Assembly: GCA_041649575.1 (NCBI GenBank)
Contig: JBAZMW010000001.1
Span: 180,001-212,000 of the forward strand
DNA: 32,000 bases
Direction: 5' to 3'
Origin: Patescibacteria group bacterium
Lineage (GTDB): Bacteria; Patescibacteriota; Patescibacteriia; 2-01-FULL-39-33
Part shown: positions 1-25,137 of the stretch, piece by piece
Layout of the letters: each line of letters opens with the position of its first letter
Position numbering within the stretch: the stretch's first letter is position 1
Notes under the pieces: model-generated
Database searches by the model: none
What the model saw: only the letters and a program-made list of their open reading frames with translations
What the model was told of the DNA's origin: nothing
Made by a program: the position numbers and the translations under genes

Positions 1-342
1 CATTCTCATATCGGCCGCATGTTCCGCCTCATCTTCCTGTCTGGCTTGCGCGACCATTTCATCGGAGACTCTGGCTTTTGCTTCAGCGATTTTCTCCGCG
101 TCGCCGGTCGTCAGTTCTTCTATCTCGCCCGCCAAAGTCCTGGGGTTGATATAAGCCAGTTGTGGCTTTGTCATGCCCTCAAGCTCTTTGATCAGGTCTT
201 CCAGAAGAACCATTGAGACCCTGTCGATGATGGTTTCCGGGGTGTCTCCCTCTCGCAGGTTGATGTGGGCGTCACCGGGAGCGCCAACGCCCCCTACGCC
301 CACATTAATTGAGCTGATTGTCCGCGCGCTGTCGTCTGGCAT
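1..342 (-). CDS. hypothetical protein, N-terminal 114 codons only (ORF runs off the window start); G+C-rich orphan
   Basis: The minus-strand frame is open from ATG (342-340) to position 1 with no stop: MPDDSARTISSINVGVGGVGAPGDAHINLREGDTPETIIDRVSMVLLEDLIKELEGMTKPQLAYINPRTLAGEIEELTTGDAEKIAEAKARVSDEMVAQARQEDEAEHAADMRM... AAGGAGGG (349-356, minus) lies 6 nt upstream of the ATG. It is missing from the ORF track because no stop lies inside the window. No motif recognised. Confidence 0.6.
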   Translation of the reverse strand, partial: MPDDSARTISSINVGVGGVGAPGDAHINLREGDTPETIIDRVSMVLLEDLIKELEGMTKPQLAYINPRTLAGEIEELTTGDAEKIAEAKARVSDEMVAQARQEDEAEHAADMRM

Positions 343-390
343 AAGTAACCCTCCTTTCCAAGGACTAGCTATTTTATATCAGTTAACCGG

Positions 391-425
391 CAAAAAAGCA
401 AACACCCTGATAAACGGGTGCTTGT
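391..425 (-). terminator. rho-independent terminator of the PAP2-like gene
   Basis: On the minus strand: ACAAGCACCC-GUUUAUCA-GGGUGUUUGC followed by UUUUUUG. About 10-bp stem with 2 imperfect positions. Starts about 15 nt after the stop at 440. Confidence 0.6.
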
Positions 426-439
426 TGGTTTGATGGAGA

Positions 440-874
440 TTAAAGTATTATAAAAATCAAATAAAGCAAGATAGTCAGGCCGATGCCGATGCCCGTGCCG
501 ATAATTACTTCCATTAAGCCGTGGCCAACCCGTTCTGGCAGATAGGTGATCGTCTTTTTGTTTTTGAAAATTTCTTTGGCCAGACGATTGGTGAGAGCGG
601 CATTATCGCCGATTTCGCGGCGGAAACCGATAGCGTCCCGCACTACTATCACCCACAAGACAAAGGCAATGGCAAAGGCGGCGGAGTCAAATCTCTGGGT
701 CAGGCCGACAACAGTAGCCAGAGAAGTGACAAAAGCCGCATGAGAAGAAGGCATGCCGCCGTAATCTCTGACCAGGTGTTGCCAAGTCAAATTATTTGGT
801 ATACCATCAATAGAGAGTTTGATAATTTGAGTGGCGATACCCACTATAACGGGAATCAAGATTAACTCGAACAT
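440..874 (-). CDS. divergent PAP2 family membrane phosphatase (DUF212 / YuiD-like)
   Basis: 144 aa, ATG at 874. Multi-pass hydrophobic protein with the GGMPSSHAAF motif and a later RD...GH pattern typical of the divergent PAP2/acid-phosphatase family. Confidence 0.8.
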   Translation of the reverse strand: MFELILIPVIVGIATQIIKLSIDGIPNNLTWQHLVRDYGGMPSSHAAFVTSLATVVGLTQRFDSAAFAIAFVLWVIVVRDAIGFRREIGDNAALTNRLAKEIFKNKKTITYLPERVGHGLMEVIIGTGIGIGLTILLYLIFIIL

Positions 875-888
875 AGTTTTGATTTTTT

Positions 889-1737
889 ATGCAATATTTT
901 TTAGCAATTTTTGCCGGAGTTCTGCAGGGGCTGACTGAATTTTTACCGATTTCCAGCTCCGGACACCTGGTAATCTTTCATCAGATTTTTAAGGTTTCTT
1001 TTATTGGCGGTCCGGGCGCGGGCGAGAGCTTGTCGGGAGATTTATTGTTTGATGTGGTGCTGCATCTGGGAACTCTGGTGGCTCTCTTGGTCTTTTTTTT
1101 CCGTGATGTGGAAAAAATTGTTCGTGGTTTTTTCTCCAGCCTGACCAACTGGAACTGGGCCAATAATTTTAATCAACGCCTGGCTTGGCTGGTAATTATC
1201 GGCACGATTCCGGCGGCAATCCTGGGGTTTTTTCTGGAAGATTTAATAACTAATTACTCGCGTTCCGCTTTTTTAGTGGCTATAATGTTGATTGTGGTGG
1301 CGGTACTATTTTGGATTTTTGAAAAATATTCTTTGAAACAGAAAGATTTGCAAACCGCCAGTAGATGGGATTCCTTGATTATTGGTTGCGCTCAAGCCCT
1401 GGCTCTGATTCCCGGAGTTTCACGCAGCGGCATTACCATTATAGCAGGTCTGGGCAGAAAGATGAAGCGAATCGAGGCCGCTAGGTTTTCTTTTTTGCTG
1501 TCGATGCCGATAATTTTTGCCGCCGGCATCAAAAAAATATTAGAAATCGACAGCTTGGCCAATGTTAATTGGCTAATTTTGATTATTGGTTTTTTGACGG
1601 CCACCGTCTCTGGCTATTTGGTGATAAAATACTTTCTTAAATACCTGAATCGTCATTCTCTGAATATTTTTGCCTGGTATCGATTGATAATTGGCTGTTT
1701 GATATTGATTTGGTTGATTTTTTTCTTTGGCGCATAG
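889..1737 (+). CDS. uppP: undecaprenyl-diphosphate phosphatase (UppP/BacA)
   Basis: 282 aa polytopic protein. N-terminal LTEFLPISSSGHL signature and the later PGVSRSG motif are both characteristic of BacA/UppP. Confidence 0.93.
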   Translation: MQYFLAIFAGVLQGLTEFLPISSSGHLVIFHQIFKVSFIGGPGAGESLSGDLLFDVVLHLGTLVALLVFFFRDVEKIVRGFFSSLTNWNWANNFNQRLAWLVIIGTIPAAILGFFLEDLITNYSRSAFLVAIMLIVVAVLFWIFEKYSLKQKDLQTASRWDSLIIGCAQALALIPGVSRSGITIIAGLGRKMKRIEAARFSFLLSMPIIFAAGIKKILEIDSLANVNWLILIIGFLTATVSGYLVIKYFLKYLNRHSLNIFAWYRLIIGCLILIWLIFFFGA

Positions 1738-2438
1738 AGAATAAGGCAAAAGCCGACAAAAACCATCAGCAAATAATTGTTTAAGCGGTTGAGCTCTTCC
1801 AGGTTTTCCAGTCTGACCAGTTTTTGCCAAAAATCCTCGGGGTAAAAATAATTGGCAGCCGGCTTTTGGTCACTGGAGTCGGCAGCAGAATCGGTTTCGG
1901 TGTCGCCCAGGACTCGGCTGCCAAAAAGTTGCACCACCACTATGGCCGAGTGATTTTCAAACTTTCCTTTCAGAGCGGCCAGCCCGATTTCCTGGTATTG
2001 CGGCTTGACAATATTGTCTCGATGACTGGGGCTGTCAATCCAGGCGCGAAAAAGGTCTTGACTGTTATTAAAATCAATAGCCAGGTTTTCGCCAACGTAA
2101 AAATAATTGTAATTAATTTCTTTGATCCATTGAGAGAACTTTTTGCCGCTGGGTGAGGTGTGGCTGAAATATTGATTAGTCAAAAGATCACTGGCCTTGT
2201 TAACCGCCGCCTGTGTCAGACGAGCATTGACTTTTAGGGGATTGAGCCCCAGGCTAAGCCGGTAATTATTGGTTAAATCAATCAACTCTTGCGGCTTAAT
2301 GGCCGTTTCCTCGTTAAGATTCGGGTTTACCCGCGGATACAAGAAAATTGTCGTGGTTAAAGCGATTTTACTGATAATCAAGACTACCGTTAAAAACAAA
2401 ATTAGTTTTTTGAAAGACTGGAGACTCAAATTTAGCAA
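1653..2438 (-). CDS. CAP/SCP (YkwD-like) domain secreted or membrane-anchored protein
   Basis: 261 aa. N-terminal hydrophobic segment, then a CAP-domain pattern (YRLSLGLNPLKVNARLTQAA..., YFSHTSPSG, GENLA, W..SPSHRDNI). C-terminal hydrophobic segment. The start codon is TTG (2438-2436), so it is uncertain. The last 85 nt overlap the uppP 3' end. Confidence 0.72.
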   Translation of the reverse strand: MLNLSLQSFKKLILFLTVVLIISKIALTTTIFLYPRVNPNLNEETAIKPQELIDLTNNYRLSLGLNPLKVNARLTQAAVNKASDLLTNQYFSHTSPSGKKFSQWIKEINYNYFYVGENLAIDFNNSQDLFRAWIDSPSHRDNIVKPQYQEIGLAALKGKFENHSAIVVVQLFGSRVLGDTETDSAADSSDQKPAANYFYPEDFWQKLVRLENLEELNRLNNYLLMVFVGFCLILYAPKKKINQINIKQPIINRYQAKIFRE

Positions 2439-2517
2439 TTAAAAATTAATTAAAACTCACATATATTATAGCATAAATATTGTCTTAGCGGTTAGGTCAG
2501 GCTATTAAAAAACAGTT

Positions 2518-3525
2518 ATGGTTATAAAAATAAAATTAATAATAATTTTGGTTTTAATCGCGGCGCTAATCGGCGGTTTTTATCTGGCGAGTTTGATTTT
2601 GTCGCCGGCCAGCCGTGAGAGTAAGGTGACTTATTTTTCCATTGAAAGCGGCGAGACGGTGGAACAAATTGCCCAGGATTTAAAAGAGCAAAAATTAATA
2701 AAAAGCGAGCTGGCTTTCAAAGCCTATGTACGCTTTGTGGGCGCGGGTAAAAAATTTGCGGCTGGCCAGCATCAGCTTGGGACCAATATGAGCACAAGAG
2801 AAATAGTCGGAGCTTTAACCAGCAGCGACAATATAAGTAATGAGAAAAAAATTATTATTTTAGAGGGCTGGAGAGCCGAAGATATTGCTAGCTATTTGGC
2901 CCGGGCCAACCTGGTTGATAAAAAGGAGTTTCTCAAAGCCTTACGGCTCGCCCTTTGGCGCGATAAGTATGATTTTTTGAAAGAGGTGCCCGCTAATAAT
3001 TTGGAAGGATTTCTGTTTCCTGATACTTATCGTGTTTTTGCCGATGCCACCAGCAGCGAGATAATAAAAAAAATGTTGGATAATTTTAATCAGAAACTGA
3101 CGGAAAAAATGAGGGCGGACATTAAGCGGCAAAATGGGGATGTTTTCAGTGTGATAATACTGGCTTCAATTATTGAGCGCGAGGGCTTGTCCGATAATGA
3201 CAAAAAGATGATTGCCGATGTATTTATAAAAAGACTAGAGAAAGGAATAGGGTTGCAATCGGACGCCACTATAAATTATATTACGGGCAAAGGAGATCTG
3301 CGGCCAAGTTTGGCGGATTTGCAAATCGATTCACCATATAATACTTATAAATATCGTGGTCTGCCACCGGGCCCAATTTCCAATCCAGGACTGGTCTCGA
3401 TAATGGCGACAATTTATCCGCAGCAAAATGATTATTATTACTTCTTGACCGACAAGAATGGCAAAGCCATCTTTGCCAAGACCTACGAGGAGCATCAGGC
3501 AAACATCAGAAAATATTTAGAATAA
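2518..3525 (+). CDS. mltG: endolytic murein transglycosylase MltG (YceG-like)
   Basis: 335 aa. N-terminal TM helix and YceG-family motifs (LASIIEREG, QSDATINY, YNTYKYRGLPPGPISNPG). Confidence 0.9.
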   Translation: MVIKIKLIIILVLIAALIGGFYLASLILSPASRESKVTYFSIESGETVEQIAQDLKEQKLIKSELAFKAYVRFVGAGKKFAAGQHQLGTNMSTREIVGALTSSDNISNEKKIIILEGWRAEDIASYLARANLVDKKEFLKALRLALWRDKYDFLKEVPANNLEGFLFPDTYRVFADATSSEIIKKMLDNFNQKLTEKMRADIKRQNGDVFSVIILASIIEREGLSDNDKKMIADVFIKRLEKGIGLQSDATINYITGKGDLRPSLADLQIDSPYNTYKYRGLPPGPISNPGLVSIMATIYPQQNDYYYFLTDKNGKAIFAKTYEEHQANIRKYLE

Positions 3526-3530
3526 TTTTT

Positions 3531-4082
3531 ATGGATCAAGGGCATTACACTCGTGGTGAAAAAGAATTTTTGTTAAAGATCGTCAGAACTACGCTGGAGA
3601 AATATTTACAGACGGATGAAAAGTTTGAGCCCCAGACAGTGAACCAGAGACTTTGGGAGAAGCGAGGCGTATTTGTGACTTTGCACAAAAAAGGCGAGTT
3701 GCGTGGTTGCATTGGTTATATCGAGCCGGTTGAGCCCATAATGATGGCGGTACGCGATAACGCTATTGCGGCGGCTAATGATCCGCGTTTTTTACCATTG
3801 GCGGAAGAAGAATTAAAAGAAATAGAGATTGAGATTTCTATTTTGACGCCCTTGGAAAAAACGGTTTTGAGCGAAATAAAAAAGGGTGATGGCGTAATGA
3901 TTAAACGAGGCAGAGCCGGCGCTACTTATTTGCCTCAGGTTTGGGACGATTTACCCGAGCCAGAAGTATTTTTTGGCAGTTTATGTCAGAAAGCGGGACT
4001 AGAAAGAGAATGTTACAAAGATCAAAAGACAGAATTTTATAAATATTCGGCCATTGTTTTTAAAGAGGGGGAGATTTTGTAG
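3531..4082 (+). CDS. AMMECR1 domain protein
   Basis: 183 aa. GVFVTLHKKGELRGCIGY core, then DPRF and a YLPQV segment, all typical of AMMECR1. Confidence 0.85.
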   Translation: MDQGHYTRGEKEFLLKIVRTTLEKYLQTDEKFEPQTVNQRLWEKRGVFVTLHKKGELRGCIGYIEPVEPIMMAVRDNAIAAANDPRFLPLAEEELKEIEIEISILTPLEKTVLSEIKKGDGVMIKRGRAGATYLPQVWDDLPEPEVFFGSLCQKAGLERECYKDQKTEFYKYSAIVFKEGEIL

Positions 4083-4114
4083 GAGAAACGGGTGGAGTTA
4101 AAATTTTATTGCTG

Positions 4115-4142
4115 TTGACAAAATTTTTGTAGCTGCTATACT
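4115..4142 (+). promoter_or_regulatory. sigma70-type promoter of the rplJL operon
   Basis: TTGACA (4115-4120), 16-nt spacer, TATACT (4137-4142). Confidence 0.6.
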
Positions 4143-4149
4143 GTTATTA

Positions 4150-4290
4150 ACAATCAAATTTTCCACAGACAATGGGCGCCCAAAAGGCTTAATTTACCGC
4201 CAAAGCGGTAGACCTATCGAGGAAATAAGGCTAGAGAGCCATTTTTCGAGTCTGTGGAAAACCACGGATTTTTATTTTATAATCATAATT
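4150..4290 (+). promoter_or_regulatory. ribosomal protein L10 leader-like structured 5' UTR
   Basis: About 140-nt untranslated leader directly upstream of rplJ. A long-range stem CCACAGAC (4163-4170) / GTCTGTGG (4250-4257) encloses a G+C-richer core. Position and architecture fit autoregulatory L10 leaders. No covariance model was run. Confidence 0.5.
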
Positions 4291-4293
4291 TTT

Positions 4294-4821
4294 ATGCCAA
4301 AAACCAAAATTAAAAAGCAGGAGATTTTAAAAAGCTTGGAAGAGCAAATCGCTCAAGCCAAGTCGGTTGTTTTCGTTAATTTTTCTGGTATACCGGTAAA
4401 AGAGATTGATGCTCTAAGAAGTAAGGGTAAGGAACAAAAAATTTCTTATACGGTCACCAAAAAAACATTGCTAAAGAGGGTGTTAAAAGAGGGTGGCTAT
4501 AAGATTGAGGCAGATAATGATTTTTCAGGGGAGCTGGCCGCTGTTTTAGGTTTGGAGGATGAGGTGGCGCCAGCCAAGCTGGTGAACGACTTTGCTAAAA
4601 GTAATGACAAGTTAAAAATTATTGGTGGTATTTTGGAACACAATCTGATCGGCTCTGATAAAATAGTGGCCTTAGCTAAGCTGCCTTCCAAAAAAGAATT
4701 ATTGGCCAGGGCAGTTGGCAGTTTAGCCGCTCCGTTATCGGGATTGGTTAATGTTCTAGAGGGTAATTTGCGCGGTTTGATTTATGCCTTGGGCGCCATC
4801 AAAGACAAAAAGTCAGCTTAA
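4294..4821 (+). CDS. rplJ: 50S ribosomal protein L10
   Basis: 175 aa. Typical L10 N-terminus (KEEI...L....KSVVFVNFSGI.V.E...LR) and position upstream of rplL. Confidence 0.93.
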   Translation: MPKTKIKKQEILKSLEEQIAQAKSVVFVNFSGIPVKEIDALRSKGKEQKISYTVTKKTLLKRVLKEGGYKIEADNDFSGELAAVLGLEDEVAPAKLVNDFAKSNDKLKIIGGILEHNLIGSDKIVALAKLPSKKELLARAVGSLAAPLSGLVNVLEGNLRGLIYALGAIKDKKSA

Positions 4822-4851
4822 TTAAAAAAATAAATTAATAATTTAAAATCT

Positions 4852-5280: not shown

Positions 5281-5290
5281 AAGGGCTGAT

Positions 5291-5322
5291 AAAAACACCC
5301 CGAAAGATCTCGGGGTGTTTTT
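5291..5322. terminator. bidirectional rho-independent terminator (rplL / convergent 801-aa gene)
   Basis: AAAAACACCCCGA - AAGATC - TCGGGGTGTTTTT. Perfect 13-bp stem flanked by an A-run and a T-run. Confidence 0.85.
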
Positions 5323-5327
5323 GGTTT

Positions 5328-8487: not shown

Positions 8488-9885
8488 ATGAATAACAGAA
8501 TCGGTTGGCTGATTTTTGGGGGATTGTTTTTGGGAGGATTATTTTTTTTGCCACAATTGTCGCTGGCCGTGACACCAAAAATTTTACCGGAGATTAAAAT
8601 TTTTGACGCGCAAGGCGTTCTCAAAAAGAGTTTTTTGGTTTTCGGTAAAAATTATCAGGGGACAGCCGATTTGGCGGTTGTGGATTTGGGTGGCGATGGC
8701 ACCAAGGAAATCATAGTCGGCGCCGGCGGCGGCAACTGGCCGGCGGTGGAGGTTTGGCGCGGTGAGGGCAGTAAAATTTATGATTTTTTGGCTTATGATA
8801 AGAATTTTAAAGGCGGGGTTTTTGTCGGCGCTGGCGATATTGACGGTGACAAAAAAGAAGAGATCATCACGGGCGCCGGCTATGGCGGCGGGCCGCACGT
8901 TAGAATTTTTAAGGACAAGGAGCCGATTTTGAACTTTTTTGCCTTTAATAAAGACGATCGGCAAGGGACAAAAGTAACAGCAGCCGATTTGGGCGGCGAC
9001 GGCCGGGTAGAGATATTGGCCGGCTCCAGCTTCAATCAACAGCCAGAGTTGTTGCTTTTTGACAATCTGGGCGGCAAATTAAGCACCGGACAAAAATTTA
9101 ATTTTTCTTCGAATAGCGGACTAAATTTAAGCAAGCTGGACATTAACGGCGACAAGAAAAATGAGATTCTTTTGGCTTCAGGCTATGGCAATCCGCCGGA
9201 AGTTTTTATTTTGGATAATCGGCTTAAGGAAATAGGCAAATTTTTGGCGGCGGAAGCGAACTACCAGGGAGGCATTAATGTGGCCGGCGGGGATATTGAT
9301 AATGACGGCCAAGACGAGATAATCACCAGTATCAGTTTTGCCGGCCAGCCGAGAATAAAAATTTTCAAAGCCAATGGTGAATTAATCAAAGAGTTTTGGG
9401 CTTACGATACGGGCTACCGGGGCGGGGTCAAGGTGGCGGCGGGAGATGTCGACGGCGACGGTCGGCTGGAAATTATCACCCTGCCGGAGAGAATTTTCGG
9501 CAATTTAAGGACGGAATACAAATACATAGAAGTTGACTTAAAGCAACAGCGCTTAAAGTATTGGCAGGGCGGCTATCAGCTGGGTAGTTTTTTAATTTCT
9601 TCCGGTTTGGCCAAAACGCCAACACCGACAGGAGAGTTTGTGATTTATAACAAGCGTCCCAAGGTGACGATGAGCTGGTATTACGGACCCAACAATCCTA
9701 TGAATTATAATTTACCCGGCGTACCCTGGGTCTCGTCTTTTTCCGGCCATTATACCATTCATGGCACCTATTGGCATAATAATTTCGGCCACCCCATGAG
9801 CCATGGCTGCATTAATATGAAGACACCAGAAGCAAAAATAATTTATGACTGGGCGGATCTGGGAACTAAAGTGATTATTAACTGA
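8488..9885 (+). CDS. secreted FG-GAP/VCBS-repeat protein fused to a YkuD L,D-transpeptidase domain
   Basis: 465 aa. Signal/TM segment, then at least 6 repeats of the form DLGGDG..EII.G / GDIDGD..EEIITG. C-terminal YkuD catalytic pattern HGTYWHNNFGHPMSHGCINM (codons around 9798-9818). Confidence 0.85.
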   Translation: MNNRIGWLIFGGLFLGGLFFLPQLSLAVTPKILPEIKIFDAQGVLKKSFLVFGKNYQGTADLAVVDLGGDGTKEIIVGAGGGNWPAVEVWRGEGSKIYDFLAYDKNFKGGVFVGAGDIDGDKKEEIITGAGYGGGPHVRIFKDKEPILNFFAFNKDDRQGTKVTAADLGGDGRVEILAGSSFNQQPELLLFDNLGGKLSTGQKFNFSSNSGLNLSKLDINGDKKNEILLASGYGNPPEVFILDNRLKEIGKFLAAEANYQGGINVAGGDIDNDGQDEIITSISFAGQPRIKIFKANGELIKEFWAYDTGYRGGVKVAAGDVDGDGRLEIITLPERIFGNLRTEYKYIEVDLKQQRLKYWQGGYQLGSFLISSGLAKTPTPTGEFVIYNKRPKVTMSWYYGPNNPMNYNLPGVPWVSSFSGHYTIHGTYWHNNFGHPMSHGCINMKTPEAKIIYDWADLGTKVIIN

Positions 9886-16975: not shown

Positions 16976-16983
16976 ATAAAATT

Positions 16984-17031
16984 TTTAGACAAATTTAATA
17001 CCGGAAAGTCGCTGGCGCAACCTTCCAGTAT
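16984..17031 (-). repeat. 48-nt hairpin module R1, 3' of the 122-aa ORF
   Basis: TTTAGACAAATTTAATACCGGAAAGTCGCTGGCGCAACCTTCCAGTAT. 43/48 identical to R2. As minus-strand RNA it forms a 12-bp stem (12/12 paired including 3 G-U) with a GCCA loop, followed by a U-rich tail. Confidence 0.85.
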
Positions 17032-17058: not shown

Positions 17059-17427
17059 TCACTCTACTTGAGCATTGATTTCTGCTGTAATGCCGGAGTA
17101 CAACTTGTGGCGTTCCGGCCCCACGATAAATGAGAGAGCGACAAACCCCAGTACAGTTTTATTATGTTTGTATCGAATGTTCCGGCAAAGCCTTTTCATG
17201 ATGCCATGTAAGTACACTGGGTGAGAGCGAATCAAGGCACGGCGAGTGCGTGGGTCCTGCCATTCTTTCAACACCTCCCATGCTTTTTGTTCGTCGTATT
17301 TTTGACTTTCTTGTAATGCCTGGCGTAATTCGTCCGCATAGTCGCGGCGAAAGTTGTCGATCTCTGCGATCGACAAGACTATTGGCACCCCATCATCCAT
17401 TTCCCCGTTTCCACTTTCCGTTCCCAT
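17059..17427 (-). CDS. hypothetical protein (122 aa), island cassette 2
   Basis: ATG 17427-17425 preceded by AGGAGGG (17434-17440, minus) at 6-nt spacing. No motif recognised. Confidence 0.65.
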   Translation of the reverse strand: MGTESGNGEMDDGVPIVLSIAEIDNFRRDYADELRQALQESQKYDEQKAWEVLKEWQDPRTRRALIRSHPVYLHGIMKRLCRNIRYKHNKTVLGFVALSFIVGPERHKLYSGITAEINAQVE

Positions 17428-17494
17428 GACGATCCCTCCTGTTGTAGGTACTGTTTTTAGTCTATCAGATGGTTTTAAAATAGTAAAATTTATA

Positions 17495-17542
17495 TTTAGA
17501 CAAATTTAATACCGGAGGGTCGCTTGCGCAACCTCCCGGTAT
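17495..17542 (-). repeat. 48-nt hairpin module R2, 3' of the 475-aa ORF
   Basis: TTTAGACAAATTTAATACCGGAGGGTCGCTTGCGCAACCTCCCGGTAT. As minus-strand RNA it forms a 12-bp stem (11/12 paired) with a GCAA (GNRA) tetraloop and a U-rich tail. Confidence 0.85.
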
Positions 17543-17568
17543 GTTGATGTACGATCGCCTGACGGCGA

Positions 17569-18996
17569 TTAGTTGAGAGCGACTGCCTCCTGCCTGCCCT
17601 CGGTGCTCAGGACCACATGGTCCTCCTCGAGCCTTAGCACGGCGATGGCGGCGCTGCCCGCGCTCTCATAGGCGTGGTTCTCGTAGATCAGCCGCGGCTC
17701 CTGGCCCGGCACCATGACATAGAGCTCATAGCGTAGTTGCGGGTCGGCGATGCGGTGATCGATCTGCTCCTCGGCCACGAAGACCGCCAGGCCCAGTCGC
17801 GCGCTTATGATCCTGTGCCGTACCGACGGCGTGCGGTAGGACACTTGGCCGGGAGTCCCCATCGGCATCTGTATGACTACGCCGTACTTCTGATCCCCGT
17901 AGTCTTGGTACATCTTTGGCTTCAGGCGCCAAGATGCCATCTTTTGCGCCAGGATCTGGGCGATCGCCGCGTCCACCTCGCCCTCAAAGGCGGCCTGCTC
18001 GGTCTCGTTGAGCTTGGGCGGACTCGGAGTCGCTTCAGTCGGCTCGAAGACAAACTCGGCGATGCGGTTGCCGTACTCCTCGTTGACGAGTTCGACGGTG
18101 ATTTTCACCTGGCCGCCCCTTTCGTCAATTTGGATTTGCCCCAGGTCGTTGATGCACAAATCGTGCCGGTCGGCGCTACTGCTGTAGCGGTTGCGCCACT
18201 GCCATTCTTGCATCTGGTCTCGGCCGTGGTGGTAGATCACCACTTGATCGAAGTAGCCGATGCCGCCACTGCCACCCCACTCGCTTCGGGCTACCAGAAA
18301 CACGGCCGTGTCGGGATCGAGCACCCTGACCTTCCCGATACTGCACCGCTCCATCTTCATCAACTCCTCAATGAACAACCGGAGCCGTGCCGACACTTCT
18401 TGCCCGCCGAGTACCTCGGCCAATGCCTCCTCATGACTCAACCGCGAGTCATCCTCCAGCAATGCTTTGACGCTGGCGGCGGCTTCGGCCAGCTCTTCCC
18501 GCTTCTGCTGGATTTGGCTGGCAAACTCTTCGCCACCGAGAAGAGCCAGCGCTTGGTGTGCGTCGGAGTAGGATTGCCGCCCGATCTCGTAAGTTTCCCG
18601 CGGGAAGTTGTCGGGGGGGAGCTCTTGTACCAAACTCCTGATGCCCAACTCATCGGTCAGGGCCAGGAACTTTTCCGTGAGCTTTCTTTCACAGCAACCA
18701 CAACCATTCATGGTCGGGTCGATTGCACTGAAGGCCTCGGCGATCGCCAGCCGGACCAGGGGATCGGGCTGGGCATTGATGGCCTTGACGATCCGCCCCC
18801 GTTCCTCGGCCGGCAATTCGCGGAGGCGTTGCACATACTTCCCGCCGCGCTGGCCATCGGCCATGGTCACAGGGATGCCGGTGACCTGCTGGGCAACTTG
18901 TAGGCAGACAGACAATTCCAACTGCCGCAGTTGTCGGCCAATCTCTTCCTCCACTTTCCGCGCTTCTTTCAGCGCTCTTTCTCTTTCCTTGTTCAT
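17569..18996 (-). CDS. hypothetical protein (475 aa), island cassette 1
   Basis: I place the start at the internal ATG 18996-18994 (MNKERERALKEARK...), because GGAGGAG (19003-19009, minus) sits 6 nt upstream and the upstream ORF stops at 19019. The track's longer 509-aa form would overlap that gene. Charged coiled-coil-like N-terminus, a CGCCERK cluster and a beta-rich C-terminal half. No family recognised. Confidence 0.75.
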   Translation of the reverse strand: MNKERERALKEARKVEEEIGRQLRQLELSVCLQVAQQVTGIPVTMADGQRGGKYVQRLRELPAEERGRIVKAINAQPDPLVRLAIAEAFSAIDPTMNGCGCCERKLTEKFLALTDELGIRSLVQELPPDNFPRETYEIGRQSYSDAHQALALLGGEEFASQIQQKREELAEAAASVKALLEDDSRLSHEEALAEVLGGQEVSARLRLFIEELMKMERCSIGKVRVLDPDTAVFLVARSEWGGSGGIGYFDQVVIYHHGRDQMQEWQWRNRYSSSADRHDLCINDLGQIQIDERGGQVKITVELVNEEYGNRIAEFVFEPTEATPSPPKLNETEQAAFEGEVDAAIAQILAQKMASWRLKPKMYQDYGDQKYGVVIQMPMGTPGQVSYRTPSVRHRIISARLGLAVFVAEEQIDHRIADPQLRYELYVMVPGQEPRLIYENHAYESAGSAAIAVLRLEEDHVVLSTEGRQEAVALN

Positions 18997-19018
18997 TGTT
19001 GTCTCCTCCGTTCGTCGC

Positions 19019-19315
19019 CTAGTGCGCGAACGCGTTGAGAAACTTTGCCAGCTCCCTCGGCTCTTTCTTGGAATGCCGAAGGAATCTGACGCACGCACCC
19101 ACTAACTCTGCTCCGAAATTCTCTTCCCGGCAGGCGATAGCGTACCACCTGGCTGCCAGCGCCTTTTTGCGTTTGCCGGTCCTGGCTAGGACCAGATTAT
19201 ACGCCTTGGAAGGACTGGTAGCAGACTCGGTGAGGTTGAGCAGTTCGGGTACGGCCCAAACCGCCTTGGCGCGTGCCAATAACTCGATCAGACGCTTGAC
19301 GTCTTTTGGTGTCAT
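19019..19315 (-). CDS. hypothetical small protein (98 aa), first gene of the island operon
   Basis: Start moved to ATG 19315-19313 (MTPKDVKRLIELL...), with AAGGAG (19322-19327, minus) 6 nt upstream. Predicted helical and basic. No family recognised. Confidence 0.65.
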   Translation of the reverse strand: MTPKDVKRLIELLARAKAVWAVPELLNLTESATSPSKAYNLVLARTGKRKKALAARWYAIACREENFGAELVGACVRFLRHSKKEPRELAKFLNAFAH

Positions 19316-19371
19316 GGCTTGCTCCTTTCCTCTGTAAGGTGCTATCAAGCTGATTGCCAGCTTAACTAATA

Positions 19372-19400
19372 ATTATATCATATTATAACATAATTGTCAA
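19372..19400 (-). promoter_or_regulatory. consensus sigma70 promoter driving the island operon
   Basis: On the minus strand: TTGACA (19400-19395), exactly 17 nt, TATAAT (19377-19372). This matches the consensus at 12 of 12 positions. Confidence 0.65.
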
Positions 19401-19483
19401 TGGTATTTTGTTATTTTATTTAAATTTAGCCAAAAATAATAAGTATTTTTGCCAAAAGTAGCAATTTGAATTAAAATATAGTT

Positions 19484-20563
19484 ATGAATTTTTGGAAAAA
19501 AATAAAAAAGCCCTGCCTATCCGGCAGGCAGGCGATTTTGGCTCTAGCCCCAATGGCTGGGGTTTCTGATTCGGCTTTTCGACAGGTCTGCAGAGAGTAT
19601 GGCGCCGATGTAGTCTATACCGAAATGGTATCGGCCGACGGCCTTTTTTATGATTCCAAAAAAACTTTGGAATTTTTAAAATTCAATAAAAAAGAACATC
19701 CGGTGGTAATTCAGCTGTTTGGCAAACAGTCTGAAAGATTCACTAAGGCCGCGCAAATTTGCGAGCAAGCCGGCTTTGACGGTATTGATATTAATTTTGG
19801 TTGTCCGGCCAAAAAAGTTGCTGGCCATGGCGGCGGAGTGACGCTGATGCGCGATTTGCCAAAGTGTCGAGAAATCATTGAGGCGGTTTTGGCTGGCACC
19901 AAGTTGCCGGTATCGGTGAAGTTGAGATCTAGTATTAATGTCAGGGGTTTGCCATGGCAAACCCCTGCATGCGGCAACCTGGTGACAGCTTTGGATTTTA
20001 TAAAATTTATGAAAGATTTGCCGCTCTCGGCAGTGATGATTCATGGCCGGCCATACGAAAACCCTTTCAATGCCGAAATAGATTATGAGATGATTAAGAA
20101 ATGCGTTGAATTTATAAAAAATAATTATTATTTAATGACACGGGATTGCCACCTGTCTCGCCGAGCCAAGGCGGACGCTCCGCTCGCAATGACAGCGCCA
20201 ATAGTTTTGGGTAATGGCGGTATTAAGACACCAGAAGATGCAAAAAGAATGTTGGAACAAACCGGCGCCGATGGTGTTGGGCTGGCTCGCGGGCTTTATG
20301 GCCGGCCGTGGCTGTTTCGGCAAATTAAAGACTATTTAAAGAAAGGAAAATACAGTAATCTAAAACTAGAAGAGATAAAAAAAATTATTTTAGAGCATGC
20401 TAAATTGGCTTTTGAAAACAAGGATAAACACGGCATAGTGGAATTAAGGAAGCATTTGGCTTGGTATATTACTGGCCAGCCTGGCGCCAGAGAGTTAAGG
20501 GCTAAGTTGGTACGGGTGGAAGATGTAAAAGAAATAAAAGCGATTTTAAAGTATTTAAAATAA
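19484..20563 (+). CDS. dus: tRNA-dihydrouridine synthase carrying three in-frame palindromic insertions
   Basis: 359 aa. LAPMAGVSDSAFR, INFGCPAKKV, VSVKLR and HGR motifs, plus a C-terminal helical domain. About 37 extra residues come from the insertions at 19512-19528, 19942-19967 and 20135-20194. Confidence 0.88.
   Translation: MNFWKKIKKPCLSGRQAILALAPMAGVSDSAFRQVCREYGADVVYTEMVSADGLFYDSKKTLEFLKFNKKEHPVVIQLFGKQSERFTKAAQICEQAGFDGIDINFGCPAKKVAGHGGGVTLMRDLPKCREIIEAVLAGTKLPVSVKLRSSINVRGLPWQTPACGNLVTALDFIKFMKDLPLSAVMIHGRPYENPFNAEIDYEMIKKCVEFIKNNYYLMTRDCHLSRRAKADAPLAMTAPIVLGNGGIKTPEDAKRMLEQTGADGVGLARGLYGRPWLFRQIKDYLKKGKYSNLKLEEIKKIILEHAKLAFENKDKHGIVELRKHLAWYITGQPGARELRAKLVRVEDVKEIKAILKYLK
19512..19528. 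repeat. small G+C-rich hairpin insertion near the dus N-terminus
   Basis: CCTGCC-TATCC-GGCAGG. Encodes part of PCLSGRQA, which interrupts the usual short N-terminus before LAPMAG. Confidence 0.65.
19942..19967. repeat. perfect 26-nt palindrome inside dus
   Basis: CAGGGGTTTGCCATGGCAAACCCCTG equals its own reverse complement. Translated in-frame as (V)RGLPWQTPA. Confidence 0.9.
20135..20194. repeat. 60-nt nested palindromic element inside dus (long form of the cysS element)
   Basis: ATGACACGGGATTGC...GCAATGACA. Its reverse complement starts TGTCATTGCGAG and ends GCAATCCCGTG, as in cysS 16597-16634. The core 20151-20175 is identical to rplL 4866-4890. Confidence 0.85.
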
Positions 20564-20580
20564 TTTATTTTATTAATCTA

Positions 20581-20609
20581 AAAATACCGGCCGTTAAGAC
20601 CGGTATTTT
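20581..20609. terminator. bidirectional terminator between dus and corA
   Basis: AAAATACCGG - CCGTTAAGA - CCGGTATTTT. 10-bp stem flanked by A and T runs. Confidence 0.75.
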
Positions 20610-20621
20610 TAAAGGAAATTA

Positions 20622-21563
20622 TTACAACAATTTTTTTTTCTTGAAGATAAATAACAGGAAAAGGACGGTTAGGAGCATCAGAATGATAACCCCCCAAAAG
20701 CCGGCTTGATTATCAAGAAAGGGCATGCCAATGACAGTATTCATGCCGAAGATGCCGGAGATTAAAGACAAGGGGAGAATTAAAACCGAGAAGACGGTCA
20801 AAGTTCTCATAATATCGTTAAGCTTGAAATAAACCAAAGAGCCGTTGGTGTCCTCCAAGGCCTCGATCATTTCTTTGTGGCTGTTAAGCAAATCCCAAAT
20901 ATTTTTGGTGTGTTCAATCAGGTTATTATAATAGGCCTTTTGTTTGTTGACAGGAAAATACTCAACTCCTTCGTGGATGATTTTCTGAATGACATTTTTG
21001 TGGTTTTCCATGATTTTGCGGAAATTCAAAATATTTCTTTTGATGTTTAGGATTTCGGTGACCATGCGCCGTTCGTGCCCGGCGAAGATGTTTTTTTCGA
21101 TGTTTTTGACATCCAAACTGATATGGTCGAGGATGGGATAGCAGTATTCTTGCAAGCGGACAATGATTTCGTAAAGCAAGGCGGCGTTGTTGCCGGTCAG
21201 GTATTGGCGGCAATAAAACTCGTCGCTGGAACAAAGATTGAAGATTTCGGTCAGCGGCGGCAGGTTGTTTTTGTGTACGGTGATAACAAAATCTCGGCCG
21301 ATGAAAAAATCAACTTCTTCCGGCTCGATGGAGCGGCTCTTGCTGTTGTAGAAAGGAAATTGCAGAATTAGGAAGCAGTAATTTTGGCGTTGGTAAAATT
21401 TGGGCCGCTGGGCATATTGCGAGGCGAAAGAATCCTTTAAATCCAATTCGTTAAACTTGTATTTTCTTCTTAGATATTCGATTTCTTTTTTTTGGGCGCT
21501 AATGATATTAATCCAGGCAAGATTGCCGGTCGGGGATTTTAGGGTGGTGATATTTTTGTTCAT
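20622..21563 (-). CDS. corA: CorA-family magnesium/cobalt transporter
   Basis: 313 aa. Cytoplasmic N-domain and two C-terminal TM helices with the GMN motif (GIFGMNTV). Confidence 0.88.
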   Translation of the reverse strand: MNKNITTLKSPTGNLAWINIISAQKKEIEYLRRKYKFNELDLKDSFASQYAQRPKFYQRQNYCFLILQFPFYNSKSRSIEPEEVDFFIGRDFVITVHKNNLPPLTEIFNLCSSDEFYCRQYLTGNNAALLYEIIVRLQEYCYPILDHISLDVKNIEKNIFAGHERRMVTEILNIKRNILNFRKIMENHKNVIQKIIHEGVEYFPVNKQKAYYNNLIEHTKNIWDLLNSHKEMIEALEDTNGSLVYFKLNDIMRTLTVFSVLILPLSLISGIFGMNTVIGMPFLDNQAGFWGVIILMLLTVLFLLFIFKKKKLL

Positions 21564-21616
21564 TTGAAGCCAGGTTAGTAATTACCTTTTTATTATAGCA
21601 TAAAAATATTGTTTTG

Positions 21617-21625
21617 TGCTATAAT
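21617..21625 (+). promoter_or_regulatory. extended -10 promoter element (TGcTATAAT)
   Basis: TG at 21617-21618, TATAAT at 20620+1000-1005 i.e. 21620-21625. It lies inside the TTG-started version of the ORF in the track, which argues for a downstream start. Confidence 0.45.
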
Positions 21626-21655
21626 AAAAATGAAATAATTACTCCGTCAAACCAA

Positions 21656-22183
21656 ATGGTTGATTCGCAAAAAATGAAAAAAGTGGAGCAAGAACCCTTG
21701 GGTACGGCCGATTTCAAGCCGGAGGCTTTCAGGCTGCCCCAAAAAGAAAAAGCTCCTTTGCCGGTGCCAGAGAAACCGCAACTGGAGTCCGGGGACAATC
21801 TGGAATCCTCCAGGCTGTCCAACCAGTCGGAGATGGTGCAGGCGGGGGAATTGATTCAGCGCCATGCTCTGCCGCCAACCGCCAGCCTTTACGAAGAAGA
21901 CTACCGGCGCATCGAGAAGGTGCTGGAGGAGAATTTGAGTGATTTTTATTTTCGTCTCTCGCCCTTGGAACAACAGAAGTTCAAGCAAAAAGGCGAGGAG
22001 ACAACGGTGGCAATTTTAAGGATTATTTCCAAGCCTAGATTCAAAATAAGAAGAATAGTGGAGCTGATAAAAAATTGGCTGAAGCTGTTGCCGGGAATCA
22101 ACCGTTTTTTTCTGGAGCAAACAGCCAAGATTAAAGCCGATAAAATCATAGTGGAAGTCACCAGAAAAAGACCATATTTTTGA
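21656..22183 (+). CDS. hypothetical protein (175 aa) translationally coupled to the T4CP-like ATPase
   Basis: First ATG downstream of the putative promoter (MVDSQKMKKVEQ...; ATG 21674 is an alternative). Pro/Glu-rich, probably disordered N-half and helical C-half. The stop TGA (22181-22183) lies 2 nt before the next ATG. Confidence 0.55.
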   Translation: MVDSQKMKKVEQEPLGTADFKPEAFRLPQKEKAPLPVPEKPQLESGDNLESSRLSNQSEMVQAGELIQRHALPPTASLYEEDYRRIEKVLEENLSDFYFRLSPLEQQKFKQKGEETTVAILRIISKPRFKIRRIVELIKNWLKLLPGINRFFLEQTAKIKADKIIVEVTRKRPYF

Positions 22184-22185
22184 TT

Positions 22186-24747
22186 ATGGATCTGACTCTT
22201 AATCAAACAACCGCGGTATTGCCGGAGCTGGTAAACCAAATTGCTTTTTGGCTGGTTTTTGGCTTGGCCCTAGCGCTGGCGGTGGTTTTAATTTTGTTGA
22301 CTTTGAGAAAGATTTTGCGTTCTTATAAAATTTATGCGGCGGTTTTTGAAAATAAAATTTTTCGGCTGACGCTGCCCAAAAGAACAATCGAAAAAGAAGA
22401 AGAACGCAAAACTGTCAAAGAAATGCTCTCCGGCGTGGAAAATCTCTATGCCAATTTGGGAGGACTAAGGGCGTCGCGCGGTTTCAAGACCTGGCTGTTC
22501 GGCCGCTATGATCATTGGGCGCTGGAGATCGTGGTGGGCGAGGACCAGCTGATCACTTTTTATCTGGCGGTGCCCAAATATTTGGAAGATTATTTAAAAC
22601 AGCAGTTTTTGTCGCAGTATCCGTATTGTCAAATTGAAGAAGTTGAAGATTACAATATTTTCAAGCCCCAAGGCTATGTGGCGGTTGGCCACTTAAAGAC
22701 GATAAAAAACAAAATGTTTCCCATTCTGACCTATAAACAGATGGAGATCGATCCTTTGGTGGCGGTTTTGAGCTCGCTGGCCAAGCTGCCACCGGGGCAG
22801 ACGGCCGCTATCCAGCTGGTGATGCGTTCGGCCAGAGGCGAATGGCGCAACCAGGGAATCAAAGTCGCTTCCCAAATGCAGCAGGGCAAAAATTTAAAAC
22901 AAGCCCTGGGCGCGGTCAGTTCCAAAGGAGTTTCCGGCGCTCTAGGCAAGCCGGCAGACTGGTTTTATGCCGCCGGCACCGGCAAAAACAAGTCGCAACA
23001 ACTTAACAAGCAACCGGAGCTATATCGCTTGTCGCCGATGGAAGAGCAAGTGGTCAAATCTCTGGAAGAAAAGGCTTCCAAGGCCGGGTTGGACGTCAAT
23101 ATCAGAATCGTGGCCTTTGCTCCGCTGGAAAATCAGGCCAAAGAGATTTTGCGGCGGATTTGCAACTCTTTCGCCCAGTATTCCAGCTACGAATATGCCA
23201 ATGGCTTTAAGGCCGTAATCAAGGGTACGGGCAGAAAATTGATCGGCGATTTCATTTACCGTCATTTTGACGAAAGCATCAACATGATTTTAAATACCGA
23301 GGAACTGACTTCTTTGTGGCACTTGCCGCTACCCAATACCGAAGTGCCCAATATTCTTTGGCTCCAGGCCAGAAAGCTGCCGCCGCCGGTCAATATGCCG
23401 CCAGAGGGAATAATTTTGGGAGAAAATGTTTACCGCGGCCAGCAGACAATCGTTAGAATGAAAGACGCGGATCGCCGGCGCCATATGTATATTATTGGTA
23501 TGACCGGCACCGGCAAATCGACAACCATGGCCACCATGGCCATTCAGGATATCAGAGCCGGCAAGGGCGTCTGTGTCATTGATCCGCACGGCAGCCTGAT
23601 GGAAGAAATTATTCCCCATATTCCCGAAGAAAGGTTTGAAGACGTGATTATTTTTGATCCCGCCGACGTCGAGCGGCCGCTGGGGCTTAATATGCTGGAG
23701 GCCAAGAGCTCCTACGAAATGGACACGGCGGCTCAAGAAATGATCACTATTTTTTATAAATTATTGCCGGATCCGGCCATGGCTGGCCCGATGTTTGAGC
23801 ATTATATGAGAAACGCGCTTTTGGCGTTGATGGCCGATCAGGATGATCCTGGCACCTTGGTGGAACTGGCCAGAATTTTTACCGACGAGCCGTTCCGCAA
23901 AAAGAAATTGGAGCATGTCAAGGATATTTTAGTCAAGGATTTTTGGGAAAGAGAATACACGGCCTCGCAAAAGGGATCGACCGGCGCCGACATGCTTTCT
24001 TATGTCATTTCCAAAACCGGCCGTTTTGTGGAAAACGAGCTGATGAGAAATATCATTGGTCAGTCGAAATCAGGCATCAACTTTCGCGAGGCGATGGACC
24101 GGCAAAAAATACTGCTGATGAATTTATCCAAAGGAAAAATCGGCGACACCAATAGTAATCTATTGGGGCTGATCGCCGTTTCCAAACTGCAAATGGCGGC
24201 TTTAGCCAGAGCCGACATGCCTGAGAGCCAGCGTAAAGATTTTTATCTGTATATCGATGAGTTTCAGAATTTCATTACCGACAGCATTTCTGTAATTTTA
24301 TCGGAGGCCAGAAAATACAAACTCAATTTGGTGATGGCTCACCAGTACATCGCCCAATTAGTGCAGAACAACGATACGCGGGTTAAGGACGCGGTTTTTG
24401 GCAATGTGGGTACGATAGTCTGCTACCGCATCGGCGTGGACGACTCCGAGGTGATGGCCAAACAACTGGCTCCGCAAGTCAATGAGTTTGACGTGATGAA
24501 TATTGAAAAATACCATGCCTATGTCAGGCTGTTGATAGATAACACCGCCTCGGAAACTTTCAATATGCTGGCTTATCCGCCAGACAAAGTGGCGGCCAGC
24601 TCGGCGGATCCGGAAATCGTCAAGCCGCTGAAAGAGCTGTCCCGGCTGAAATACGGCCGTGACCGCAACTTGGTGATAAGAGAAATAATAGAGCGGTCGA
24701 AAATCGGGCAGCTGGGCGTCAAGCCGCCTAGCCCGCTTGGCAAATAA
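22186..24747 (+). CDS. membrane-anchored TraD/VirD4-like (type IV coupling protein / DUF87-type) P-loop ATPase
   Basis: About 853 aa from ATG 22186. N-terminal TM (IAFWLVFGLALALAVVLILLTL), Walker A GMTGTGKST (23497-23520), Walker B-like YLYIDEFQNF (around 24256-24267), then ARKYKLNLVMAHQY, typical of the TraG/TraD C-terminal region. Confidence 0.8.
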   Translation: MDLTLNQTTAVLPELVNQIAFWLVFGLALALAVVLILLTLRKILRSYKIYAAVFENKIFRLTLPKRTIEKEEERKTVKEMLSGVENLYANLGGLRASRGFKTWLFGRYDHWALEIVVGEDQLITFYLAVPKYLEDYLKQQFLSQYPYCQIEEVEDYNIFKPQGYVAVGHLKTIKNKMFPILTYKQMEIDPLVAVLSSLAKLPPGQTAAIQLVMRSARGEWRNQGIKVASQMQQGKNLKQALGAVSSKGVSGALGKPADWFYAAGTGKNKSQQLNKQPELYRLSPMEEQVVKSLEEKASKAGLDVNIRIVAFAPLENQAKEILRRICNSFAQYSSYEYANGFKAVIKGTGRKLIGDFIYRHFDESINMILNTEELTSLWHLPLPNTEVPNILWLQARKLPPPVNMPPEGIILGENVYRGQQTIVRMKDADRRRHMYIIGMTGTGKSTTMATMAIQDIRAGKGVCVIDPHGSLMEEIIPHIPEERFEDVIIFDPADVERPLGLNMLEAKSSYEMDTAAQEMITIFYKLLPDPAMAGPMFEHYMRNALLALMADQDDPGTLVELARIFTDEPFRKKKLEHVKDILVKDFWEREYTASQKGSTGADMLSYVISKTGRFVENELMRNIIGQSKSGINFREAMDRQKILLMNLSKGKIGDTNSNLLGLIAVSKLQMAALARADMPESQRKDFYLYIDEFQNFITDSISVILSEARKYKLNLVMAHQYIAQLVQNNDTRVKDAVFGNVGTIVCYRIGVDDSEVMAKQLAPQVNEFDVMNIEKYHAYVRLLIDNTASETFNMLAYPPDKVAASSADPEIVKPLKELSRLKYGRDRNLVIREIIERSKIGQLGVKPPSPLGK

Positions 24748-24808
24748 ATTAAATTGTGATATATCAAATATTGCTAGGGAGCGTCTAACTTGGGAAGGAG
24801 GAAACACC

Positions 24809-25069
24809 ATGATTACGACCGTGACCCTGACAAAGCCTTTACAGGTGGCGGATTTTTCCGGCAGTGACTGGAAGTTTCGGACTCTGCCACAAGGAGAGTA
24901 CCAGGTGGAGGATGTGGCCAATCCCTTGGGTCTGGCAGGCGAAGACGATCATTGGCTGGTGCTGGCAGGCACCCAGGAAGGCATGAGAGAAAGCGTCTGG
25001 CGACGGCACTGCTGCAGGGGGCAGAAGCGGAGCTGGCTAAAGACTTTGCCAGAGCCGTGTCCGGCGTAG
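24809..25069 (+). CDS. small G+C-rich orphan protein (86 aa); the 3' part is possibly frameshifted
   Basis: ATG 24809 preceded by AAGGAGG (24795-24801) at 7-nt spacing. MITTVTLTKPLQVADFSGSDWKFRTLPQGEYQVEDVANPLGLAGEDDHWLVLAGTQEGM... The track's earlier start lacks an SD. It has its own terminator downstream. Confidence 0.5.
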   Translation: MITTVTLTKPLQVADFSGSDWKFRTLPQGEYQVEDVANPLGLAGEDDHWLVLAGTQEGMRESVWRRHCCRGQKRSWLKTLPEPCPA

Positions 25070-25098
25070 GACTCGTGGAGGACTAGTATTAGAGACGG

Positions 25099-25137
25099 CC
25101 GTTTAACCGAGGCAACCGGTTAGACGGCTCGATTTTT
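25099..25137 (+). terminator. rho-independent terminator after the small orphan gene
   Basis: CCGTTTAACCG - AGGCAAC - CGGTTAGACGG (11-bp stem, one G-T), followed by CTCGATTTTTA. Confidence 0.6.

Follow-up and report, generated by a model that had tools for sequence, protein, structure and literature searches.

GC-rich accessory genes are led by Shine-Dalgarno sequences in a Patescibacterial genome whose core genes mostly lack them

Results and discussion

GC content and Shine-Dalgarno sequences are coupled throughout the genome

We analysed a 32,000 nt stretch of DNA (the window; contig C1, positions 180001-212000) from the genome of a Patescibacteria group bacterium (assembly GCA_041649575.1, here G000), which comprises ~920 kb in five contigs, has a G+C content (GC) of about 44-44.5%, and is estimated to be 97.9% complete with 1.09% contamination. 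At three loci of the window, five open reading frames (ORFs) stand out by their composition and by a Shine-Dalgarno (SD) sequence directly upstream, and this association is real and genome-wide: 62 of the 80 genes with a GC of at least 0.53 (GC-rich genes) are SD-led (77.5%), versus 36/666 (5.4%) of the genes with a GC below 0.50 (low-GC or bulk genes; odds ratio 60, p = 3.6e-48), where an SD is a match of at least 5 nt to the consensus, located 4-13 nt upstream of the start. We consider it probable that the window samples a genome-wide organisation into two classes of genes, the second of which is an accessory and long-lived pool among Patescibacteria.

The three loci are positions 1-342 (minus strand), 17059-19315 (minus strand, with three ORFs) and 24809-25069 (plus strand), and their SD sequences are:

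356-349, minus strand: SD AAGGAGGG, an 8-mer match read in the sequence 6 nt before ATG 342
17440-17434, minus strand: SD AGGAGGG, read in the sequence 6 nt before ATG 17427
19009-19003, minus strand: SD GGAGGAG, 6 nt before ATG 18996, with an SD kept at the equivalent place of locus L003 (see below)
19327-19322, minus strand: SD AAGGAG, within GAGGAAAGGAG, 6 nt before ATG 19315 and identical in L003
24795-24801, plus strand: SD AAGGAGG, read in the sequence 7 nt before ATG 24809

The first-pass annotation of this sequence had listed these SD sites, and all five are present at 6-7 nt from the ATG. Its tally of four out of four GC-rich ORFs is right as to the presence of the SD and wrong as to the count, as there are five ORFs at three loci and one of them, the 122-aa ORF, has a GC of merely 48%. 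Its statement that host genes mostly lack an SD stands as well: none of the 22 other window genes has a match of 5 nt or more (three have weak 4-mers), giving a split of 5/5 versus 0/22 (Fisher p = 1.2e-5), and the genome-wide figures given above agree. The signature in composition and initiation signal, which it proposed the islets to have in common, is likewise found across the genome, where scoring of all starts against GC confirmed the coupling and SD sequences are not common in low-GC genes.

An SD as a by-product of G-rich upstream sequence was rejected, since internal ATGs have an SD at a chance rate of about 7% in both GC classes, and shuffling of the upstream regions left an SD before 16% of the GC-rich and 2.6% of the low-GC genes, against the 77.5% observed; the rate in low-GC genes is in line with the internal-ATG level. 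The distance from SD to start peaks at 6-9 nt. An effect of operon position was also rejected, as the split holds both for genes with an upstream gap of at least 80 nt (SD in 47/62 GC-rich versus 19/278 low-GC genes) and for those with a gap below 30 nt (9/9 versus 7/283). The distribution of gene GC has two modes, 0.44 and 0.56, separated by a trough at 0.50-0.52. A link of the SD to accessory status in general was rejected too, since low-GC genes without an ortholog in a relative have an SD in 12/207 cases, the same as the core (24/459 of those with an ortholog), and the SD thus follows membership in the GC-rich class and not the accessory status itself.

The 3′ end of the 16S rRNA, the other point raised by the first-pass annotation, does carry an anti-SD: the single 16S rRNA gene ends in GGATCACCTCCTTTCT, the canonical CCUCC motif. 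A few low-GC core genes have an SD that is conserved in both G000 and a comparison genome from another genus of the same family (G004; 903 kb, 40.5% GC), and use of the anti-SD is therefore not confined to the islets. The coupling of GC and SD also exists in G004, with different member genes: SD sequences precede 28/49 genes that are at least 0.08 above the median GC versus ~5% of genes within 0.04 of the median or below, and the median GC is 0.481 for SD-led genes (at least a 6-mer) versus 0.402 for genes without an SD. At six outside loci, with the gene calls of the collection, 19/26 GC-elevated genes were SD-led versus 11/93 of the remaining genes (p = 3e-9), a comparison with a small bias from selection, as these loci were picked via an islet homolog. 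The relatives compared are non-independent samples.

Leaders, mRNA structure and codon usage of the two gene classes

The first class contains ~88% of the genes, is mostly core and has a GC of ~44%. In these bulk genes, positions -20 to -1 are about 85% A+T with 6-10% G, and a T at -1 in 62% of the genes, while positions -19 to -4 (A 44-53%, G 6-12%) hold an A-rich non-SD signal near the start. The TATAAT peak lies at -45 to -26, corresponding to leaders of ~20-35 nt, with an additional small leaderless group. Judging from these leaders, which appear short, A/U-rich and G-depleted or absent, and have an SD not above chance, initiation in this class is presumably SD-independent and takes place on unstructured mRNA; the genome codes for an S1 protein with four domains.

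Upstream of the GC-rich genes, G makes up 40-57% of positions -13 to -8 and C occupies -1 in 50%, and the TATAAT peak is located at -110 to -66 (leaders of ~55-100 nt). The minimum free energy (MFE) of the start region is -9.8 kcal/mol for GC-rich versus -4.7 for bulk genes, with -10.9 in the interior of bulk genes, and over the 70 nt that follow the stop codon the median MFE is -21.9 kcal/mol for GC-rich versus -10.4 for bulk genes. The 3′ hairpins of the GC-rich genes have long G+C-rich stems, mostly followed by a T-run, and each differs in sequence; a common attC-like element behind all islets was rejected, as these downstream hairpins are unrelated. Most genes of the second class thus appear to lie in self-contained units, in which a promoter-like box is followed by a long and often structured leader, an SD at 6-9 nt and, at the end, a predicted strong hairpin terminator. 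Translation of these units is probably by classical SD pairing, because the 16S rRNA retains a CCUCC anti-SD able to pair, and the amount of structure in their start regions, which is about that of bulk-gene interiors, may be what makes an SD necessary.

Two further observations concern initiation. In Flavobacteria the anti-SD is sequestered on the ribosome in a bS21/bS18/bS6 pocket, and a short ORF in our genome (C3:138343-138498, minus strand), located just downstream of the native histidyl-tRNA synthetase (HisRS) gene, has a sub-threshold match to bS21 (23.6 bits, cut-off 27); the status of bS21 may bear on the accessibility of the anti-SD. Furthermore, leaderless mRNAs are suggested for many native genes of other Patescibacteria, at the loci L209 and L210 and several of L180-L208, where a TATAAT-like box ends 6-9 nt upstream of the ATG, unlike in G000, in which most bulk genes have leaders of 20-35 nt.

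The difference in composition affects all codon positions, with GC1/GC2/GC3 (GC at the first, second and third position) of.60/.44/.69 for GC-rich versus.49/.35/.48 for bulk genes. Two-fold codon choice is reversed (AAG, TTC, TAC, AAC and ATC in GC-rich genes, AAA, TTT, TAT, AAT and ATT in bulk genes), and GC-rich proteins contain less Lys, Asn and Ile and more Ala, Arg, Pro and Trp.

The GC-rich class is accessory and dispersed

The ~80 GC-rich genes (53-68% GC) form 51 islets of one to five genes and 0.3-7 kb on all five contigs, and are mostly not each other's paralogs. Pfam domains were found in 13 of the 20 largest, and identified a second DnaA, a second HisRS, a Kef-type cation/proton antiporter, a major facilitator superfamily (MFS) transporter and a ComM-like ATPase, as well as PilM, a T2SSE ATPase, a DinG-like helicase, a radical-SAM enzyme and Ig-domain surface proteins. 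Reciprocal best hits in G004 exist for only 6/80 GC-rich genes, versus 459/666 low-GC genes; 74/80 are without an ortholog and 65/80 without any BLAST match in that genome. The GC-rich genes are accessory by this measure, and are therefore compatible with gain by transfer. The genome has two tyrosine recombinases, both on contig C2, with none in or near the window, and a recombinase beside every islet was rejected as it was not observed.

Some of the named genes are extra copies of housekeeping genes. The GC-rich HisRS gene (C5:67194-68680, locus L041/L221) is followed 21 nt downstream by a tRNA-His(GUG) gene, while the native low-GC HisRS gene is located at C3:138536-139963 and a second tRNA-His gene at C4:9917-9993; the GC-rich gene and its neighbour look like a synthetase-tRNA pair acquired as one unit. 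The GC-rich DnaA2 (C3:13961-15364, locus L019) is full-length, with N-terminal, ATPase and C-terminal helix-turn-helix (HTH) domains, and the native low-GC dnaA is located at C4:72691-74082. A three-gene GC-rich islet at C1:151352-156714 (locus L008), SD-led in 3/3 genes, encodes surface proteins of 396, 381 and 831 aa with Ig domains and TSP3 repeats, possibly adhesins of an epibiotic cell.

As this is a metagenome-type assembly, the pattern might be an artefact of chimeric assembly or binning, with fragments of a higher-GC, SD-using organism mixed in. We regard this as extremely unlikely, given that 51 islets of this size are embedded between core genes in five large contigs, that the junctions of one islet with its flanking genes dus and cysS recur in an independent assembly, that the same pattern recurs in G004 and the six other independent contigs, and that the contamination estimate is as given above.

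Traceable homologs of GC-rich genes are Patescibacterial

The first-pass annotation had proposed repeated acquisition from an SD-using, high-GC donor, with the host bacterium of an epibiotic cell or its phages as speculative source. The accessory status described above fits with acquisition, but the proposed donor is not supported by the homologs. The 475-aa protein of the window has 4 homologs among 5.8 billion proteins, of which the best (57% identity) and only named one is from a Patescibacteria metagenome-assembled genome (MAG), and it has no match in IMG/VR, phage or plasmid collections. The GC-rich HisRS is 60-73% identical to proteins from Falkowbacteria, Buchananbacteria and other Patescibacteria, and the GC-rich Kef protein 46-58% to proteins of Paceibacterota/Patescibacteria, with DPANN archaea next at 38% or less. 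No identifiable foreign donor lineage was found for these three proteins, and judged from homology the traceable gene pool of the GC-rich class is inside the phylum. The homologs are themselves GC-elevated and SD-led:

L044: HisRS homolog, gene GC 0.45 versus host GC 0.35, SD-led
L209: Kef homolog, gene GC 0.52 versus host GC 0.45, SD-led
L210: Kef homolog, gene GC 0.55 versus host GC 0.44, SD-led
L211: Kef homolog, gene GC 0.44 versus host GC 0.35, SD-led

As these hosts have a GC of only 35-45%, the GC excess is host-relative and not one fixed donor value.

Lawrence and Ochman reportedly described an amelioration model for horizontally acquired DNA of atypical composition, and the islets resemble acquired DNA in that their GC is atypical at all codon positions, that they are patchily distributed and inserted between core genes, and that they include extra housekeeping copies. 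Accessory DNA is usually richer in A+T than its host. The islets differ from acquired DNA of this kind in being GC-richer than the host, in a GC excess which survives saturation of synonymous sites and scales with the host, and in having traceable donors from the same phylum. Repeated and fairly recent imports from an SD-using, high-GC donor outside the candidate phyla radiation (CPR), still carrying an unameliorated signature, would account for an accessory class, for the shift at all codon positions and in amino-acid usage (as would result if the genes had evolved for long in GC-rich surroundings), and for the absence of family relatives of the 122-aa and 140-aa ORFs of the window. Such imports are nevertheless an unlikely explanation, as the closest homologs of the 475-aa, HisRS and Kef proteins are Patescibacterial and are islets in low-GC hosts whose GC they follow, the 475-aa protein has no viral or plasmid relatives and there are no PHROG matches, an islet is syntenic in a genome with flanking proteins that are 42-73% identical, and the Kef islet is GC-rich past synonymous saturation (both described below). 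For the same reasons a signature that is simply foreign, as the first-pass annotation had it, is not supported.

Islets persist at two loci with their GC excess and SD sequences

The islets of the window consist of the following features:

1-342, minus strand: 5′ part of a 140-aa orphan ORF, 55% GC, which extends 80 nt past the window start
16984-17031, minus strand: hairpin module R1, a stem-loop with the invariant tail GGTATTAAATTTGTCTAAA, closing the 122-aa unit
17059-17427, minus strand: 122-aa orphan ORF, 48% GC, a single-gene unit (17427-16984) between R2 and R1
17495-17542, minus strand: hairpin module R2, closing the unit of the 98-aa and 475-aa genes
17569-18996, minus strand: 475-aa orphan gene, 60.6% GC, GC3 0.77 (from sequence and homolog search)
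19019-19315, minus strand: 98-aa orphan gene, 56.6% GC, first in its islet and 72% identical to its L003 homolog
19347-19363, minus strand: leader hairpin AAGCTG-gcaat-CAGCTT, in the ~55 nt 5′ untranslated region (5′ UTR) of the 98-aa gene
19372-19400, minus strand: predicted sigma-70-type consensus promoter (TTGACA, 17 nt, TG-TATAAT), a 12/12 match, top of the scanned region and kept in L003
24809-25069, plus strand: 86-aa small gene, 54% GC, between a type IV secretion system (T4SS)-like gene and dnaX
25097-25139, plus strand: predicted intrinsic terminator of the 86-aa unit, with a 13-bp stem and a T-run behind it

Locus L003 is from an independent MAG (GCA_041650015.1, labelled Patescibacteria at NCBI), in which the order is dnaX, T4SS-like gene, small ORF, corA, dus, the islet with the 98-aa and 475-aa genes, and cysS. 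The 98-aa and 475-aa unit (19400-17495, minus strand) thus occupies the same site between cysS and dus in both genomes, with its SD sequences, promoter, hairpins and end module kept. The L003 islet has a GC of 53-60% versus 40-45% for its flanks. Its leader hairpin is at the same place (L003:7625-7641, AAGCCG-atggt-CGGCTT), with changes on both arms of the stem. Identity between the two genomes is 42-73% for the flanking proteins, and 72% (98-aa) and 57% (475-aa) for the islet proteins. In the islet (17569-19315 versus L003:7676-9380), the synonymous divergence (dS) is 0.54 for the 98-aa and 1.56 for the 475-aa gene, with a non-synonymous divergence (dN) of 0.33 for the latter; dS of the flanks is saturated (2.1 to undefined), while dN of the islet is similar to that of the flanks.

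The loci L209 and L210 are also syntenic, with a Kef islet between cysS and dnaB, and both islet and flanks are saturated at synonymous sites. This islet has a GC of 0.52/0.55 and a GC3 of 0.64/0.71, with most flanks at 0.40-0.45 and dnaB at 0.49-0.50, an excess of +8 to +11 GC points over the flanks. A composition that is GC-rich after synonymous saturation argues against unameliorated recent import, and amelioration of islet GC toward the host was not observed at either locus pair (L209/L210 and G000/L003).

Such persistence might also be expected of native, vertically inherited genes that are kept GC-rich and SD-dependent by selection, for instance as a translational regulon, with fast evolution mimicking absence from relatives. 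Synteny, SD, promoter and leader hairpin are conserved between G000 and L003, GC is kept after synonymous saturation, the SD of the 86-aa family is conserved across genera, the few SD-led core genes described above have theirs conserved in G000 and G004, and the dN/dS of the islet (0.2-0.4) is above that of the flanks, all in keeping with vertical descent. This explanation is nonetheless improbable, since most of the class has neither ortholog nor any BLAST match in a genome of the same family, the extra HisRS (with its tRNA-His) and DnaA stand beside native low-GC copies, as is typical of acquisition, and the distribution of the smaller units is patchy: the 86-aa and 122-aa units are both absent from the syntenic L003 locus. 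The 86-aa unit (24795-25139) occupies a 398 nt gap, where the corresponding gap in L003 is 67 nt, and its family is present in 7/33 family genomes, with 5/5 inspected homologs SD-led at 34-45% identity. No homolog of the 122-aa or the 140-aa ORF was found among the 33 other family genomes.

Several points weigh against our main reading, two gene classes of which one is an accessory pool among Patescibacteria. Genes were called with our own crude codon-bias finder, with the first ATG taken as start, and not by curated annotation. About half of the GC-rich class are orphans of which the origin is not traceable, and most islets are without a linked vehicle or recombinase. Taxonomic placement, as called for by the first-pass annotation, covers only four GC-rich genes, and succeeded in part: the 475-aa, HisRS and Kef proteins were placed in Patescibacteria, while DnaA2 is without a close relative. 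The closest match of DnaA2 among species-representative genomes is outside the phylum, at 42% identity, with Hydrogenedentota and Omnitrophota giving the best matches, as recent import from elsewhere would predict; its homolog search returned generic DnaA matches at 33-42% identity and no nameable donor, and some import across phyla is possible. Distant Kef homologs (~35% identity) from 29 other Patescibacteria have a native composition, and 27/29 lack an SD, so that class membership is not fixed per protein family; in several of these genes the ATG lies 6-9 nt behind a -10 box, pointing to leaderless transcripts. Finally, the lower dS of the islet shared with L003 could reflect later lateral exchange between the two lineages in place of uninterrupted presence, or constraint on synonymous sites.

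Terminal hairpins of the window islets

The 48 nt R1/R2 module, a 12-13-bp hairpin with tail, has only two copies in the genome, which bracket the 122-aa ORF. A third copy is located behind the 459-aa homolog of the 475-aa protein in L003 (L003:9410-9460); the stems vary in a compensatory manner, and the tail is identical in all three copies. The module may be a terminator that doubles as an insertion or recombination site. The 122-aa unit, being bounded by two module copies, is similar to the ORF-attC units of integron cassettes or of clusters of attC sites lacking integron-integrases (CALIN), and if the islets were integron-like cassettes, the 3′ hairpins would be attC-like sites and the SD sequences would make the cassettes translatable anywhere. 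The presence in L003 of one copy and no 122-aa unit, and the invariant tail with compensatory stem, are consistent with this. It is still very unlikely as an explanation for the islets, as the other islets have hairpins of unrelated sequence that resemble ordinary terminators with T-runs, most units have their own promoter-like box (12/12 in the 98-aa and 475-aa islet), no IntI integrase or attI site is nearby and the tyrosine recombinases are elsewhere in the genome, and the islets are scattered singletons, not arrays.

The five window ORFs have no Pfam, PHROG, PADLOC or NCBIfam family match, the PADLOC match of the 122-aa ORF being at chance level (E = 0.005), and no Rfam family was found in the window islets, including the leader hairpin. 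The AlphaFold2 (AF2) model of the 475-aa protein has a predicted local distance difference test (pLDDT) score of 79, without a PDB fold match (best template modelling (TM) score 0.17), and 0/40 relatives have a homolog of this protein.

A proposed circulating pool of self-sufficient expression units

Units of the second class would spread among Patescibacteria as self-sufficient expression modules. Members turn over between relatives, and some stay for long at fixed loci with their GC excess and SD. Homologous recombination via conserved flanks, following DNA uptake, is a candidate route, and candidate causes for a GC excess that is kept are selection, biased gene conversion in often-recombining genes, or a mobile reservoir of higher GC from which the genes are replaced again and again. 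A more far-reaching version, with two initiation systems side by side, one SD-independent for the core and one SD-using for the circulating accessory pool, and with GC and SD actively maintained by selection or continual gene flow, is in our view doubtful. If it were true, accessory genes might be expressed as a separately controllable set, for instance via the availability of the anti-SD, and it would explain why the anti-SD is retained where core genes ignore it.

Phage morons are autonomous units of promoter, ORF and terminator, located between phage genes in prophages. The single-gene units described here are similar in having their own promoter-like box, SD and a terminator as read from sequence, a position between unrelated genes, and a composition unlike their surroundings, but their flanks are chromosomal (cysS, dus, dnaX and the T4SS-like gene) and there are no PHROG, phage or IMG/VR matches.

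The bulk genes resemble the "group B" of GeneMarkS-2, which includes Bacteroides ovatus and Flavobacterium, with a standard anti-SD, and in which B. ovatus has an SD before ~3% of its genes and an upstream motif rich in A (PMC6028130). Our genome likewise has a canonical anti-SD, an SD in a few per cent of the bulk genes, A-rich and G-poor upstream regions and a handful of core SD sequences, but differs by a second class of ~10% of the genes, which is almost uniformly SD-led, +10-15 GC points richer, and accessory. Within CPR, some Parcubacteria are reported to lack the anti-SD motif (PMC9297842). No description of a GC-rich, SD-led accessory class in Bacteroidota or CPR was found in open-access papers and bioRxiv preprints.

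Translation initiation in Patescibacteria/CPR is essentially unstudied by experiment, and an odds ratio as high as the one reported here allows genes predicted to need the anti-SD to be told from those predicted to do without it. The coupling offers a reason for the anti-SD to be retained in a genome whose core ignores it, and serves as a simple sequence signature by which the accessory genome of these organisms is defined. If the GC excess is truly maintained past saturation, to equate atypical composition with recent import is misleading in this phylum, which would have consequences for detection of horizontal gene transfer, for binning and decontamination filters that discard GC outliers, and for gene callers that learn one ribosome binding site model per genome.

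Other features of the window

Pfam supports the names of the host genes uppP, mltG, AMMECR1, rplJ, rplL, the L,D-transpeptidase (LDT) gene (window 8488-9885), a Mur ligase gene and cysS. Ordinary features of the window are an Rfam L10 leader upstream of rplJ (4145-4284, plus strand) and a tRNA gene between dnaX and a 1275-aa gene (26980-27050, plus strand).

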